Shown here: piece after piece, positions 4,356-12,627 of the stretch
How the letters are laid out: the number at the start of each line of letters is the position of its first letter
How positions within the stretch are numbered: position 1 is the first letter of the stretch
IMG/VR virus record: IMGVR_UViG_2534681658_000013
Strand: one strand, 5' to 3'
DNA: 35,120 nucleotides
From: a virus
Lineage: Duplodnaviria > Heunggongvirae > Uroviricota > Caudoviricetes
Notes under the pieces: generated by a model
Seen by the model: only the letters and a program-made list of their open reading frames with translations
Database searches by the model: none
What the model was told of the DNA's origin: nothing
Made by a program: the position numbers and the translations under genes

Positions 4356-4787
4356 ATGGCAAAAGTATTTACACAAGAAGAGCGGGAAAAAATTAAAGGG
4401 CAGGTTGTTGAGCTAGTACGCCGGAGTGGGCGCGAGACGTTACGGCAACTGGAAGCCAAGACAGGTGCGACAAGATATCTGATGAGCGTTCTCGCCAGAG
4501 AGCTGGTTGCCAGTGGCGATGTATACAACTCTGGTTACGGGTTATTCCCGTCTGAACAGGCTCGTAAGGACTGGCAAAATGCCCGCAAAAAACTATCCAG
4601 GGCAAAGGTGAAGAAACCATCTGTGGTTGATCCGGACCTTATCTGGTCATTACCAGACGGAGAAATACGCCGCTACGACAGGCGTCTGAACATAATCTGT
4701 CGCGAGTGCCGGAAGAGCGAAGTTATGCAGCGTGTGCTGGCGTTTTATCAGAATGGTTTTCGAGAGAGGCTTGGAGATCAGGGATGA
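4356..4787 (+). CDS. Hypothetical phage protein
   Basis: ATG at 4356 with GGAGG RBS 7 nt upstream; 143 aa; last gene before the AT-rich island. Confidence 0.5.
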   Translation: MAKVFTQEEREKIKGQVVELVRRSGRETLRQLEAKTGATRYLMSVLARELVASGDVYNSGYGLFPSEQARKDWQNARKKLSRAKVKKPSVVDPDLIWSLPDGEIRRYDRRLNIICRECRKSEVMQRVLAFYQNGFRERLGDQG

Positions 4788-4980
4788 ATAGAACGATGAA
4801 GGATGGAAGCTACATATTCTCGGTACTAAGATTTATTTTTCTGACACAAAATGACCATTTGGCGTTACATAATCCCAAAAAAACGTATCAAAAATCTCAA
4901 AATGCGTTACGATTAGAGAGTATTTTGATTCTGCGTGCTCATTTTTTGATTGCTGTGGCTTTTTGTTGTGGGAGTGTTGA

Positions 4981-6135
4981 ATGGATTATTTATCAGAAGT
5001 GTTAAAAATCATTGAAGGTGCAACAAAGGCAAATGCTTCGATGGCTAGTAATTATGCTGGGTTGCTGGCAGATAAGCTCGAACAAAAAGGGGAGGTCAAG
5101 CAAGCCAGAATGATAAGAGAAAGGTTGCTTAGAGCTCCCCAGGCGTTGGCAGGAGCTCAAAGGGCTGGAGGTGGGATATCTCTGGGCTCATTACCGGTAG
5201 ATATTGATAGTCGACTCAACACTGTTGATGTCAGTTATCCTAAATTAGACAGTTCAGAGATTTTTCTGCCTGCAGCAATCAGTACCCGTGTTGAAGAGTT
5301 TATCACTAATGTTCAACGTTATGATGAGTTTGTTAAAGCTGATGCAGCATTGCCGAGTCGTATGCTCGTGTATGGAAAGCCAGGAACAGGTAAGACTATG
5401 TTATCTAAGTACATCGCTACCCGCTTAGATTTTCCACTTCTTACAGTGCGTTGCGATACTTTGATTAGTAGTTTATTGGGACAAACCAGCAAAAATCTTA
5501 GACAGGTTTTCGATTATGTAATGCAGAGGCCATCAGTGCTTTTTTTAGACGAATTTGATGCTTTAGCTGGAGCAAGAGGTAATGAGAGAGATATAGGTGA
5601 GCTTCAGCGAGTTGTCATTTCACTATTGCAGAATATGGATGCGGCATCAGAGGATACGGTAATTATTGCCTCAACTAACCATGAGCAACTTCTGGATCCT
5701 GCAATCTGGAGGCGATTTAGCTTCAGAATTCCAATGCCTCTGCCTGACATACATCAGAGAGAGTTAATTTGGAAAAATCGTTTAAAGAATATGATATGTA
5801 GCGATCTAGATTTAAGTGATTTATCAAGAAAATCGGAGGGATTATCCGGAGCAATAATTGAACAGGTGAGCTTGGATGCACGTAGGGATGCAGTTATTGA
5901 AGGTGCAAGTGTGATAAATCACCATAAATTGTATAGGCGTTTGTATCTTGCGCAATCGCTTATGGAAGGTGTAAATTTAAGCACTTACGAAGATGAAATT
6001 CGTTGGTTACGTTCTAAAGATAAAAAATTATTTTCTATCAGAGTTCTTGCTAATTTGTACAAACTTACATCAAGAGTAATTTCAAACATTCTGAAGGAGT
6101 CAGGAGCATATGAGCAGAAGGGGTACACAGTTTAG
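4981..6135 (+). CDS. AAA+ ATPase (classic AAA family), first gene of a candidate two-gene defence cassette (IetA-like?)
   Basis: Walker A GKPGTGKT (5374..5397), Walker B LFLDEFD (DE at 5548..5553), second region of homology STNHEQLLDPAIWRRF; GGGAGTG RBS before the ATG at 4981; AT-rich codon usage distinct from flanking phage genes. Confidence 0.85.
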   Translation: MDYLSEVLKIIEGATKANASMASNYAGLLADKLEQKGEVKQARMIRERLLRAPQALAGAQRAGGGISLGSLPVDIDSRLNTVDVSYPKLDSSEIFLPAAISTRVEEFITNVQRYDEFVKADAALPSRMLVYGKPGTGKTMLSKYIATRLDFPLLTVRCDTLISSLLGQTSKNLRQVFDYVMQRPSVLFLDEFDALAGARGNERDIGELQRVVISLLQNMDAASEDTVIIASTNHEQLLDPAIWRRFSFRIPMPLPDIHQRELIWKNRLKNMICSDLDLSDLSRKSEGLSGAIIEQVSLDARRDAVIEGASVINHHKLYRRLYLAQSLMEGVNLSTYEDEIRWLRSKDKKLFSIRVLANLYKLTSRVISNILKESGAYEQKGYTV

Positions 6136-8374
6136 TAACGCAAAAGTTACAAACCCAATGTTAAGAATCCCTTTTTCCAGTAGTGACTTGGGTGCAATAG
6201 TAAACGCTGGCGGTGGGGCAAAGGTATTGGTTGATGTAACAGCCGAATATAGACAAGGGCTAGTAAGAAATTTAACAACCAGTAAACATTATTTAGAATC
6301 CAAACTTTCAGAGTACCCTGGAAGCTTGGGTACTTTGGTTTTCAAATTAAGAGACCAGGGAATAGCCAAAACGCATAGGCCGAACAAAATTGCTCAAGAG
6401 GCTGGATTGCAAAATGCCGGTCATGCCAAAATAGATGAAATGTTGGTTGCTGCTCATGCCGGCTGTTTTGACGTATTAGAGTCAGTCATTTTACATCGGA
6501 ATATTAAAGCGATTTTGGCTAATCTAAGCGCGATTGAGCGCATTGAACCTTGGGATGAGAATAGGAAGGTTCCAGGAGGCACTGATGGTTTGTTTGAATC
6601 ATCAAACATCCTTGTACGACTATTTGAGTACACAGGTGAAGATGCAACTTACAACAACTATGAAAACGTTATTTCTATATTAGAACAACACGGAGTTAAA
6701 TATGATGAGATTAGACCAAAATGTGGTCTTCCCTTATTAAGGATAATGGATTTATCCCCAAATGATAGATATATATTAGACATTCTCATTGATTACCCGG
6801 GTATAAGAACGTTAATTCCAGAACCAAAATATTCAGCATTCCCGGTTAGTGTAAGTGATTCTGTTGGCATTGAAACAAATAGCTTTCCCGTACCATCAGA
6901 AGAATTACCCATTGTTGCTGTATTTGACACTGGGGTAAGCCCCATCGCGGCAACAATTACTCCTTGGGTAGTGAGTAGGGAAACATACGTAATTCCTCCT
7001 GATACGAGTTATGAACATGGGACTATGGTGTCTTCATTGATATCAGGCGCTCATTTTTTAAATGACAATCATCCATGGATTCCTGATACAAAATCTAAAA
7101 TCCATGATGTTTGTGCTTTAGATGGAAATGGATCTTATATATCAGATTTAATTCTGAGGCTAGCAGATGCTGTAAATAAAAGACCAGATATAAAAGTCTG
7201 GAATTTGTCTTTGGGAGGCGGACCATGTAATGAGCAGATGTTTAGTGATTTTGCGATGGAGTTAGATCGGCTCAGCGATAAATTTGGTATTTTGTTTGTA
7301 GTTGCTGCAGGTAATTATGTAGATGAACCTATACGTACATGGCCAAATCCTGATCCGCTTGGAGGTGCTGATTTAATTTCCTCTCCTGGAGAGTCAGTCC
7401 GAGCACTAACAGTTGGTTCAGTTTCTCATATGGAAGCTAATGATGCTTTAAGTGAAATTGGAACACCGACACCATATACTCGTCGTGGCCCTGGGCCTGT
7501 ATTTACTCCAAAGCCAGATATAATCCATGCTGGCGGTGGGGTTCATAGACCTTGGAATGTAGGAGCAAGCAGTTTAAAGGTCGTAGGGCCAGATAATAGG
7601 CTTTGCTCTAATTTTGGTACTAGTTTTGCTGCTCCAATTGTGGCAAGTTTAGCTGCGCATACATGGCAGAGAATAGCCACTAATTCAGACTTTAATGTTT
7701 CACCATCATTGATTAAAGCATTATTAATTCATTCCGCTCAATTATCTTCTCCTGATTACTCGCCAAGTGAAAGACGCTATTTGGGAGCGGGAATTCCTAA
7801 TGAGGTTATTGAGACCTTATATGATAGTGATGATAGGTTTACTCTGATTTTCCAAACATTCTTGGTTCCTGGGGTGAGGTGGAGAAAGGAAAACTATCCC
7901 ATACCATCGGCACTTATTCAAAATGGAAAATTTAAAGGTGAGATTGTAATTACTGCTGCATATGCACCACCACTGAACTCTAATGCCGGCAGTGAATATG
8001 TTCGCGCGAACGTAGAGCTAAGTTTTGGCTTAATTGAGAATAATACTATAAAAGGAAAAGTACCTATGGAAGGAGAAAACGGTCAATCTGGATATGAGAG
8101 AGCTCAAATTGAGCATGGTGGAAAGTGGTCACCAGTAAAAATTCATCGCAAGGCATTTAATAAAGGAATTACTTCGGGTAACTGGGCTCTTCAAGCTAAA
8201 ACAACGTTGAGAGCGAATGAACCGGCCTTAATGGAGCCTTTACCTGTAACTATTGTAGTAACTTTAAAATCATTAGATGGAAACACACAAGTTTATGCTG
8301 ATGGCGTAAGAGCTTTAAATGCTAATAACTGGGCTCACTATCCATTGCCTGCTCGTGTGCCAGTTTCCGTATAA
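6110..8374 (+). CDS. Subtilisin-like serine peptidase (MEROPS S8) with large N- and C-terminal domains of unknown function; second gene of the cassette (IetS-like?)
   Basis: Catalytic triad in subtilase order: Asp in VAVFDTGVS (codon 6926..6928), His in HGTMVS (7016..7018), Ser in GTSFAAP (7622..7624). No N-terminal signal peptide. AGGAG RBS; the start overlaps the ATPase gene by 26 nt. Confidence 0.85.
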   Translation: MSRRGTQFSNAKVTNPMLRIPFSSSDLGAIVNAGGGAKVLVDVTAEYRQGLVRNLTTSKHYLESKLSEYPGSLGTLVFKLRDQGIAKTHRPNKIAQEAGLQNAGHAKIDEMLVAAHAGCFDVLESVILHRNIKAILANLSAIERIEPWDENRKVPGGTDGLFESSNILVRLFEYTGEDATYNNYENVISILEQHGVKYDEIRPKCGLPLLRIMDLSPNDRYILDILIDYPGIRTLIPEPKYSAFPVSVSDSVGIETNSFPVPSEELPIVAVFDTGVSPIAATITPWVVSRETYVIPPDTSYEHGTMVSSLISGAHFLNDNHPWIPDTKSKIHDVCALDGNGSYISDLILRLADAVNKRPDIKVWNLSLGGGPCNEQMFSDFAMELDRLSDKFGILFVVAAGNYVDEPIRTWPNPDPLGGADLISSPGESVRALTVGSVSHMEANDALSEIGTPTPYTRRGPGPVFTPKPDIIHAGGGVHRPWNVGASSLKVVGPDNRLCSNFGTSFAAPIVASLAAHTWQRIATNSDFNVSPSLIKALLIHSAQLSSPDYSPSERRYLGAGIPNEVIETLYDSDDRFTLIFQTFLVPGVRWRKENYPIPSALIQNGKFKGEIVITAAYAPPLNSNAGSEYVRANVELSFGLIENNTIKGKVPMEGENGQSGYERAQIEHGGKWSPVKIHRKAFNKGITSGNWALQAKTTLRANEPALMEPLPVTIVVTLKSLDGNTQVYADGVRALNANNWAHYPLPARVPVSV

Positions 8375-8385
8375 CAACTATATAA

Positions 8386-8418
8386 ATCAAACCCGCTGTA
8401 GCGGGTTTGATTTATTTG
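8386..8418 (+). terminator. Rho-independent terminator after the peptidase gene
   Basis: Perfect hairpin aaacccgc-tgta-gcgggttt followed by a T-rich tract (gatttatttg); the palindrome could act in both directions. Confidence 0.6.
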
Positions 8419-8782
8419 TGGGTGTGTTTTATAAAAATACCGCCCATACACAACAAAATACAAAAAGTATTACAGATAAAAAAGGAGCGTAATGTGCAGA
8501 TTTGTTGTTTTCCATATTTACTCACCTTAATATGATTAATCCCGATAAGATTGTTATTTCAGCGGTTTTCAAATGAAATATTATGCTAATTTGGCAGATT
8601 TGCATAACATTAAAATTTAATTTATCTAACCGCTTTTAATAATAAGCGTTGTATTTTTATCCCAGCAATCTGTTGTTTGGTTTTTATTCCATTAAGGTGG
8701 GGCTTTACACTGGAGCCAGTTTATTTATACTTCATACGTCAGCCTGAACAACTGGCACCTGCTGCGCCAGCAGAGAAAACAG

Positions 8783-9061
8783 ATGGCGCACGATACCAAA
8801 TTTTACAATTCGGATAACTCTGCCGCCCCTGCCAGCAGGCACGGGCGGCGTTCTCATGCATTCAAATCTGACTGGTATCAGCACGACCCCTGCACCGAAG
8901 AACAGGCTGAATGGCTCATTCAGTGTTACCGCGGGCGCGGATGCGAGGTTAAAAAAGCCCTTAGCCTCGACTACCGTCACTGGATAATCTCCGTCAGGCT
9001 CCCTTACTCAGAACGGCCAGCGCGTCCGTCCCGCACATTCCAGCAACGGATCTGGAGGTAA
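8783..9061 (+). CDS. Hypothetical protein (92 aa), possibly a gene remnant
   Basis: ORF track; sits between the AT-rich 380-bp non-coding stretch and the DUF968 gene; no recognisable motif; unusual composition (Arg/Trp/His-rich). Confidence 0.3.
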   Translation: MAHDTKFYNSDNSAAPASRHGRRSHAFKSDWYQHDPCTEEQAEWLIQCYRGRGCEVKKALSLDYRHWIISVRLPYSERPARPSRTFQQRIWR

Positions 9062-11463: not shown

Positions 11464-11539
11464 GGCCCTTTAGCTCAGTGGTGAGAGCGAGCGACTCATA
11501 ATCGCCAGGTCGCTGGTTCAAATCCAGCAAGGGCCACCA
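11464..11539 (+). tRNA. tRNA-Ile2 (anticodon CAU, lysidine type; ileX/ileZ-like)
   Basis: Hand-folded cloverleaf: acceptor GGCCCTT/AAGGGCC, D-stem GCTC/GAGC, anticodon loop CTCATAA, T-arm GCTGG-TTCAAAT-CCAGC, encoded CCA. Very close to my recollection of E. coli ileX, so more likely Ile2 than elongator Met. Confidence 0.8.
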
Positions 11540-11639: not shown

Positions 11640-11713
11640 GCGTTGTTAGCTCAGCCGGACAGAGCAATTGCCTTCTAAGCAATCGGTCACTGGTTCGAAT
11701 CCAGTACAGCGCG
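11640..11713 (+). tRNA. tRNA-Arg (anticodon UCU, reads AGA)
   Basis: Hand-folded cloverleaf: acceptor GCGTTGT/ACAGCGC (one G-U pair), anticodon stem ATTGC/GCAAT with loop CTTCTAA, T-arm ACTGG-TTCGAAT-CCAGT; CCA not encoded. Resembles argN/argO-type tRNAs of lambdoid prophages. Confidence 0.75.
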
Positions 11714-11826
11714 CTATATTCATTCTTCCAGATTCCTTCCGGCAGAGCCTTATACTGAAATATACCTGGCTCAGGATATTGTTGAAAATATTTTATGTTT
11801 GTCAAAAATAAAAGTTCTGTTAAGTA

Positions 11827-12180: not shown

Positions 12181-12571
12181 ATACATATCTGGATTATCAC
12201 TTGTTACGGTAAAAAGTGATTGCTTACTGTTTTTGTGAGTGGCATTGCAGCAGCCGGATAATGTCAGTGCTGGCTGACGGTGTGCTGGTGGCGGGTGTGG
12301 TGGTTGTTGCTTTCCCGTTGCTGAAAAAGAAAACGCCAGACTGTTAGCCGGGTATCAGTTAGCGGGAGAAATTTTTAAATACTTCACAATTCAGGCGGTT
12401 GACTGTTGTCTGGTTTGCGGGGAGTTTGTTAAAAGAAACTGGCATGGTGAATCCCCCTGTGCGGAGGGGCAATCAGCGAGTAGGTATATGGGATAATCGC
12501 GGATTCAGGTGCTGGTACTGAATTCACCGGGAGGCACCCGGCACCATGCAATGGCACATAGCGCCACTCTC

Positions 12572-12600
12572 CAGCCCCTCTCCGGAGGGGCTGTTTATAT
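12572..12600 (+). terminator. Strong intrinsic terminator hairpin
   Basis: 9-bp perfect stem cagcccctc-tccg-gaggggctg followed by TTTATATTGATTTT. Confidence 0.5.
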
Positions 12601-12627
12601 TGATTTTGTCAGATGTGAGTAAACTCC

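Follow-up and report, generated by a model that had tools for sequence, protein, structure and literature searches.

What lies in the long regions that flank the catalytic core of a phage-borne subtilisin-like peptidase, and how might such an enzyme be kept harmless inside the cell that makes it? The question arises from a 35,120-nucleotide stretch of DNA (the window; IMG/VR record IMGVR_UViG_2534681658_000013, a virus of the class Caudoviricetes), in which an open reading frame (ORF) at 6110-8374 encodes an S8 peptidase whose flanks had been taken, in a preliminary description made by eye, for probable sensor or regulatory modules of no recognisable type. Judged by its sequence, this ORF is IetS (IteS in the NCBI spelling), the protease half of the two-gene IetAS anti-phage system. 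We consider it quite probable that IetS of IetAS is a cytoplasmic, zymogen-like subtilase on a prophage cargo cassette, with the accessory-domain anatomy and the IetA-restrained mechanism set out below.

The system is already known and RefSeq names both genes correctly, so that genome annotation is unaffected by our analysis. Yamamoto and colleagues reportedly gave the original description in 2009, as the IetA-IetS toxin-antitoxin pair of pTiC58, and Gao and colleagues are said to have described IetAS as an anti-phage defence system in 2020. A literature search, beyond whose reach those two papers lay, found no published structure, mechanism or flank domain anatomy for IetAS. One point of interest in this validated defence system is the way in which a cytoplasmic subtilase is held in check by a p97-like ATPase. 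The two genes concerned are:

4981-6135, plus strand: iteA (ietA), a 384-aa classical AAA ATPase and antitoxin partner (NF042959, PADLOC IetA, Pfam AAA).
6110-8374, plus strand: iteS (ietS), a 754-aa S8 peptidase and toxin/effector (NCBIfam, PADLOC, RefSeq).

The second of these ORFs comprises 754 codons, begins with an ATG, ahead of which stands AGGAG as a Shine-Dalgarno sequence, and shares the 26 nt at its start with the end of the upstream ORF. Its product scores 1039.4 bits against the NCBIfam equivalog NF042956 IteS_antiphage (cut-off 900; model positions 1-747 aligned to residues 15-752) and matches PADLOC PDLC02197 with an E value of 8.4e-300 over residues 12-753. The upstream product reaches 526.6 bits against NF042959 IteA_antiphage (cut-off 510) and an E value of 9e-143 against the PADLOC IetA model. 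Every feature by which IetAS membership can be tested from sequence is present, namely hits to both models, gene order, overlap, and intact catalytic and Walker motifs, and as a member of IetAS the pair shows no difference. The region of 4.6 kb has 100% identity to prophage DNA of E. coli TW10722, where PGAP names iteA and iteS, and of 5426 complete E. coli genomes 78 contain at least 80% of it. The ORF is a genuine one, since 314 homologues were found and nearly all of the best 120 are ~750 aa long; the 99%-identity cluster containing IetS has 1093 member sequences. Conservation is given below from an alignment of 45 IetS homologues of 50-84% identity, to which mean identities to the query refer.

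Peptidase_S8 (residues 268-544, E 1.1e-25) is the only Pfam family found in IetS, and no other family appears consistently across these homologues, even with the threshold relaxed to E<=10. A whole-family profile compared with PDB sequences gave matches confined to ~265-578. The statement that the flanks carry no recognisable sequence motifs is therefore borne out, Pfam and PDB profiles matching only ~268-578. Within this region, D273 (codon 6926-6928), H303 (7016-7018) and S505 (7622-7624), together with the oxyanion residue N402 (7313-7315), are invariant in 45/45 homologues, and the S8 domain as a whole has a mean identity of 63%. The preliminary description had placed the same Asp, His and Ser near 272, 302 and 504, each number one too low. 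Its N-terminal flank is of about the size it claimed (~265 aa); the C-terminal one is smaller, ~190-195 aa and not ~250, because the S8 fold runs to ~560.

The AlphaFold2 model of the full-length protein is compact and multi-domain, with a mean predicted local distance difference test score (pLDDT) of 81.7 and a predicted template modelling score (pTM) of 0.85; it includes a strand at 18-20, a helix at 45-68 and the S8 fold at 268-560. A Foldseek search with this model returned ProN-Tk-SP as its best match (E 1e-21), the whole 505-507-residue target being aligned, followed by KP-43, SubHal, Tk-SP, PCSK9 and pro-subtilisin E. From the model and the alignment, the following parts of IetS can be delimited:

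6137-6241, plus strand: conserved N-terminal peptide, aa ~10-44 (N15-P16, I-P-F 20-22, D26-L27, G34-G-G, K38).
6242-6313, plus strand: long helix, aa 45-68 (DSSP on both models, pLDDT >90).
6326-6553, plus strand: N-distal ferredoxin-like (beta-alpha-beta-beta-alpha-beta) domain, aa 73-148.
6602-6844, plus strand: N-proximal ferredoxin-like domain, aa ~165-245, candidate equivalent of an I9-type propeptide.
6845-6907, plus strand: hypervariable linker, aa 246-266, candidate processing or flexible segment.
6908-7789, plus strand: S8 catalytic domain, aa ~267-560.
7790-8371, plus strand: C-terminal beta-sandwich domain, aa ~561-754.

One loop of the catalytic domain stands apart. The insertion at aa 404-423 (7319-7378), immediately following the oxyanion-hole motif AAGN402Y, is a hot spot for indels with a pLDDT of 42-46; it nonetheless bears the invariant residues R409, W411 and D421, and might serve as a movable gate close to the active site.

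Of the two domains modelled between the helix and the linker, the distal one (fold 74-147) is well conserved, with a mean identity of 64%. Invariant in it are R81, E110, N138-L-S140 and W148, as well as a loop joining strand 1 to helix 1, A86-K87-x-H89-R90-P91 or AK(S/T)HRP. The proximal domain (fold 167-242) is a second beta-alpha-beta-beta-alpha-beta unit in the AlphaFold2 model and is fast-evolving, the region 149-245 averaging 36% identity. The same difference in pace appears over greater distances: among 94 diverse full-length representatives, hidden Markov models of the regions picked up 89 distal domains but only 23 proximal ones, and the spacing between the distal and S8 domains is kept despite the divergence of the proximal one. 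Both N-terminal domains thus have the beta-alpha-beta-beta-alpha-beta order of the I9-type fold.

For the distal domain, a fold search with the isolated unit returned at least 10 protease propeptides among the top 31 matches, the top match being a propeptide. Scores were 5.9 for ProN-Tk-SP, 5.5 for the CspB propeptide chain (83/92 residues) and for TPP1, 5.3 for POIA1 and fervidolysin, 5.1 for the propeptide chains of PCSK9 and subtilisin BPN', and 4.7-4.8 for the propeptides of PC1/3 and Tk-subtilisin. Ferredoxin-like regulatory and ACT domains fall in the same score range (3-deoxy-D-arabino-heptulosonate 7-phosphate (DAHP) synthase 6.1, acetohydroxyacid synthase (AHAS) small subunit 5.1).

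The proximal domain offers evidence of another kind. It closes with a conserved tail, P230-G-x-R-x-[IL]-x-P-E238-P239-x-[YF]241, and this PGxRx[IL]xPEPx[YF] pattern is one that we take to resemble the C-terminus of I9. After Y241 comes a hypervariable stretch and then L-P-x-VAVFD273TG, so that Y241 lies ~26 residues ahead of the first catalytic strand. In subtilisin, the Tyr at the propeptide cleavage site has the same spacing to the Asp32 strand; because of this match, the proximal domain may be assigned to the canonical propeptide position. The linker itself averages 27% identity, holds the most indels of the alignment and has low pLDDT, residues 243-267 being poorly predicted. In whole-protein superpositions, pro-form subtilases align ~70-80 residues more with the IetS model than mature enzymes do, which suggests that one of the N-terminal domains occupies the propeptide position.

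Upstream of both domains, the N-terminal peptide follows a family-wide pattern of a short strand, an Asp, a Gly-rich loop and K.hh.V. It is ordered in the full-length model (pLDDT 83/80, with the strand at 18-20) and unstructured in a model of residues 1-165 (51-59). Order in the full-length context alone suggests packing on something outside 1-165, that is, on the proximal, catalytic or C-terminal domain. In these models, then, the N-terminal flank is a tandem of propeptide-fold domains, most like those of subtilases and sedolisins, which the conserved peptide and the long helix precede.

The C-terminal flank tells a similar story. In the AlphaFold2 model, residues 576-750 form nine strands and three helices, a beta-sandwich packed behind the S8 domain as in the C-terminal domains of subtilases (KP-43, the jelly roll of Tk-SP, PPC PF04151, P-domain PF01483). 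As modelled, this flank is a beta-sandwich at the position of the KP-43 C-terminal domain, a classical subtilase accessory fold. Its mean identity is 65%. The most conserved 20-residue blocks of IetS are 621-640, 461-480 and 661-680, the first and last of which lie in or beside helical insertions of the C-terminal domain. A profile of this domain (556-754) found no match in the PDB; against 1.84 billion proteins it drew only 459 representative clusters. In the 150 of these listed, all long proteins have the domain at their C-terminal end, are ~650-825 aa long (mostly 740-780 aa) and share the IetS architecture, so this version of the beta-sandwich appears specific to IetS. The family-specific parts of the protein are the N-terminal peptide, the distal domain with its AK(S/T)HRP loop and the helical insertions of the C-terminal domain.

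A short fragment bears on the same domain. An uncultured Pseudomonas metagenome-assembled genome (CAUQIJ010000008.1, locus L048, 4001-4472) encodes no more of an IetS homologue than its final ~158 residues (65% identity), with 4 kb of upstream DNA free of IetA; it has the look of a remnant, or of a C-terminal-domain piece in independent use.

Comparison with solved enzymes places this anatomy. The best whole-protein match, Pro-Tk-SP of Thermococcus kodakarensis (PDB 3afg), combines an N-terminal propeptide, a subtilisin domain and a beta-jelly-roll. KP-43 and SubHal (PDB 1wmd, 5fax) superpose on IetS with their catalytic domain and C-terminal beta-barrel (364/434 residues, Foldseek E 3e-17) but, unlike IetS, are secreted, have structures without a retained propeptide and lack an ATPase partner. 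Pro-forms of the PCSK9 type (at least 300 residues aligned) have, as IetS does, an encoded propeptide-fold domain beside the catalytic domain. In PCSK9 the propeptide stays bound and inhibits, whereas in IetS inhibition would not be permanent, because published work finds IetS alone toxic. At the level of the fold, the regions once called unknown are thus largely ordinary in the models, and the idea of novel sensor modules is not supported: the flanks are, by model and Foldseek, classical subtilase accessory folds. Still of interest are the arrangement of propeptide domains in tandem, the conserved peptide at the N-terminus, the AK(S/T)HRP loop and the enlarged C-terminal domain.

In its location, IetS departs from the secreted enzymes. 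By Kyte-Doolittle hydropathy, rather than SignalP, no Sec or Tat signal peptide is apparent: the first 44 residues are polar and Gly-rich, with a maximum 10-residue hydropathy of 1.15. Nor is there a transmembrane-grade segment anywhere in IetS, the maximum 19-residue window being 1.48. IetS may be regarded as a cytoplasmic zymogen-like subtilase because it has neither a secretion signal nor a membrane segment, in agreement with the cytoplasmic peptidase that the preliminary description had assumed. Of the scenario which that description had named as contrary to its own reading, one half was found, the pro-domain and beta-sandwich folds, and the other, a missed secretion signal, was not. Propeptide- and beta-sandwich-type flanks without such a signal turn a vague idea of sensor domains into concrete experiments. 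That the gene encodes a normal secreted enzyme of the subtilase type, built with a pro-domain plus a pre-peptidase-type domain at its C-terminus and having no relation to defence, is scarcely credible, since the fold likeness to secreted ProN-Tk-SP and KP-43 is opposed by the lack of a signal peptide or transmembrane segment, passage of the IteS equivalog cut-off, obligate pairing with IetA, a prophage cargo position, and the published toxicity and defence phenotypes of the IetS family.

The intracellular subtilisins (ISPs) of Bacillus are cytoplasmic subtilases like IetS, which differs from them in having full propeptide-fold domains. Their LIPY/F plug is an ISP feature and not one of the IetS family as a whole. 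The motif [LIVM]P[FYW] occurs within the first 60 residues of 5/89 diverse relatives, against 5.6 expected by shuffling, and an ISP-like plug was rejected. The I-P-F at residues 20-22, in the N-terminal strand, is conserved in the E. coli clade of IetS.

IetA contains a Pfam AAA domain at residues 128-253, and a Walker A motif (GKPGTGKT), a Walker B motif (LFLDEFD) and a second region of homology (SRH; DPAIWRRF) can be read from its translation. The closest solved structures by sequence comparison are the D2 domain of p97/VCP/Cdc48, AFG2, Rix7 and the proteasomal Rpt subunits, and the next-best NCBIfam families are PAN, CDC48 and FtsH. From its sequence, IetA belongs to the classical AAA clade, and we claim nothing finer. 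The Vps4/katanin clade, suggested by RRF-x-x-RI-x-x-PLP, was set aside, the nearest solved sequences being p97/Cdc48 D2 instead. IetA is directly upstream of IetS in 42/42 related loci for which upstream DNA is available, a range that extends from Enterobacterales to Burkholderiales (45 loci surveyed, in Citrobacter, Enterobacter, Pseudomonas, many Burkholderiales and Dyella), and the proposal of an ATPase-coupled peptidase holds both here and throughout these loci. Outside the AAA domain and lid, ~110 N-terminal residues of IetA (aa 1-110, 4981-5310) and ~60 C-terminal ones (aa 321-384, 5941-6132) have no family match; no region of IetA evolves faster than the C-terminal one (p-distance 0.54).

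Published work supplies the functional side. According to PMC13069673, IetS acts as toxin and IetA as antitoxin, an ietA mutant was not clonable, and protease activity is required for IetAS defence. Papers on homologues agree that the active ATPase neutralises the protease; for a Mycoplasma pair, deletion of the ATPase alone is lethal (PMC8562856). A B. cereus ietAS works through abortive infection, its trigger being SPbeta YosG, a protein whose function is unknown (bioRxiv 10.1101/2022.08.27.505566). The argument that a cytoplasmic subtilase needs tight control to avoid self-toxicity gains support from these reports of a protease that is toxic unless the ATPase is present. Mycoplasma TA132/133 (PMC8562856) and ietHAS (PMC13069673) likewise pair a ~750-aa S8 toxin with an upstream ~350-390-aa AAA antitoxin, but belong to subfamilies far removed from this one, and in ietHAS there is a third gene, for an SNF2 helicase, where the present locus has two genes only.

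Taking anatomy and published phenotypes together, we infer a mechanism, unpublished as far as the search above extends, in which propeptide-type self-inhibition is combined with ATP-dependent restraint by IetA. The proximal propeptide-like domain would serve IetS as intramolecular chaperone and temporary inhibitor. This self-inhibition would be leaky, because IetS alone is toxic in published work, and if the propeptide block is insufficient, IetA must restrain IetS. A p97/Cdc48-like hexamer of IetA may keep the protease harmless in an ATP-dependent manner, by holding or by repeated remodelling, and would probably engage the N-terminal peptide, the distal AK(S/T)HRP loop and the insertions of the C-terminal domain. 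A phage product might then inhibit, occupy or bypass IetA, comparable to SPbeta YosG for the Bacillus homologue, and with the restraint lost, freed IetS would cleave cellular or phage proteins and the infection would be aborted.

Several points weigh against this reading. No I9 (PF05922), PPC or P-domain (P_proprotein) hit was obtained in any of the 45 members with Pfam at E<=10, and a profile of residues 1-165 matched nothing in the PDB; what is shown is a likeness of fold and position rather than homology, and the flanks of IetS are not filed in the Pfam I9, PPC and P-domain families because the sequence models fail. The identity of the N-terminal domain at the propeptide site, the lie of the 240-242 strand in the cleft and the docking site of the N-terminal peptide are all inferred. 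The mechanism by which IetAS acts against phages is called unknown in the literature (PMC13069673).

The alternative that survives best assigns the family-specific parts another principal task. The N-terminal peptide, the distal domain and the C-terminal insertions could mainly dock the IetA hexamer, the peptide, for instance, being a tail gripped by the AAA pore; we think this possible, though the balance is somewhat against it. These parts are conserved like the catalytic domain, the C-terminal domain is confined to proteins of IetS architecture among the 150 matches listed of 459, IetA accompanies IetS in every locus with upstream DNA, and the N-terminal peptide is ordered solely in the full-length model. 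IetA is, moreover, of the p97/Cdc48 type by its nearest solved structures, and ATPases of this type thread polypeptide tails. Less favourable is the pore itself, where the pore-loop-1 position of IetA reads S-L-L-G, aliphatic rather than aromatic (W-F-G in p97 D2, L-A-G in p97 D1). Co-evolution gives no specific signal for these parts either. In a mirror-tree comparison of 40 paired IetA-IetS loci, raw correlations were 0.68-0.92 for all regions, uniformly high because of shared phylogeny; after controlling for S8, the partial correlations with IetA fell to 0.04-0.18 for the N-terminal peptide, distal domain and C-terminal insertions. The highest values belong to the proximal domain of IetS (0.40-0.47, the 0.47 being with the IetA C-terminus), both partners in that pair being fast-evolving, so that the value may be a rate artefact.

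A dedicated sensing role for the flanks, as first proposed, seems to us unlikely. In its most explicit form, the distal domain would be ACT-like, its basic loop (R81, K87, H89, R90) serving to capture a phage protein, a nucleotide or another signal and to switch the protease on directly, with the fast-evolving proximal domain as specificity determinant. ACT domains bind ligands at the loop that joins strand 1 to helix 1, which is where the invariant AK(S/T)HRP sits; propeptides outnumber ACT-like matches for the distal domain and include the top match. The low identity of the proximal domain and linker (36% and 27%, against 63-65% elsewhere) recalls defence sensors, whose surfaces often evolve fast; subtilase propeptides, too, generally evolve faster than catalytic domains, and the rate difference does not discriminate. 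The distal domain, as the most conserved one, would be an odd choice for sensing diverse phages, and none of the 45 members has a ligand-binding family match in Pfam at E<=10. That the known trigger of the Bacillus homologue is a phage protein of unknown function agrees with sensing in general, while published genetics place control in IetA. The original observation about these flanks is confirmed at the level of sequence, and its interpretation partly supported.

A bolder variant of self-inhibition under IetA control is about as doubtful as dedicated sensing. The tandem propeptide module could be a reusable safety catch operated by IetA, which would grip the N-terminal peptide and hold the inhibitory module in place or set it back time after time, with the distal AK(S/T)HRP loop or the proximal domain reading the phage trigger. 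If true, a propeptide would have been turned into an immune sensor and switch, and a new coupling of AAA unfoldase and subtilase would be at hand.

The genomic setting is that of a mobile cargo. Two features of the DNA around the pair are:

4752-8723, plus strand: low-GC (~0.40) cargo cassette with iteA-iteS (GC profile; phage comparison).
8382-8415, strand unassigned: GC-rich hairpin with a 15-bp stem, 8 nt past the iteS stop (consensus scan only).

The window represents a lambdoid Rac-like prophage, in which the guanine-cytosine (GC) fraction drops to 0.39-0.41 over 5000-9000 from 0.48-0.6 in the surroundings. Homology with the related phage vB_EcoS-813R8, which lacks iteA-iteS, ends at 4751 and restarts at 8724, the slot being occupied there by small genes including a hok-type killer; the induced phage vB_EcoS-683R6 bears iteA-iteS with a different right flank. 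The GC dip, the homology break at 4751/8724 and the differing right flanks indicate that iteA-iteS is a ~4-kb cargo in a variable prophage slot. The cassette contains these two genes and no third. E. coli ietAS tends to be prophage-borne (Wu et al.), and the present locus agrees. To the left of the cassette lie dicB, ydfC, a cI/cro-like pair, ydaT, O/P-like replication genes and DUF977, and to the right ydfU (DUF968), rusA, Q, two tRNAs and lysis genes, the immediate neighbours being the DUF977/LygF gene on one side and ydfU-rusA-Q on the other. The hairpin, from its sequence, is likely the operon terminator.

Further observations concern the surroundings. Past the hairpin, 8416-8782 is a stretch of ~370 bp without a long ORF, with promoter-like sites at 8509-8536 and 8704-8731, and the right edge of the cassette falls at ~8724-8767. 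In E. coli F2_81 (NZ_CP043542.1 2591177-2596756), the iteA-iteS match is in two pieces with an IS3-family transposase annotated beneath, which would be an IetAS locus disrupted by IS3. The immunity region of the prophage (1393-1818 and neighbours; L001 2144-3319) holds a divergent pair of helix-turn-helix repressors followed by a 'toxin YdaT family' gene, and to its left are dicB, ydfC and ydfB, typical cargo of the Rac/Qin type. The prophage tRNA genes lie at 11464-11539 and 11640-11714, downstream of the Q-like antiterminator gene. The first is tRNA-Met (anticodon CAT) according to ARAGORN and tRNA-Ile in RefSeq for the identical gene, and the second is tRNA-Arg (TCT). After the tRNAs, an Rfam match to the STnc100 small RNA (132 bits) occupies 12413-12602.

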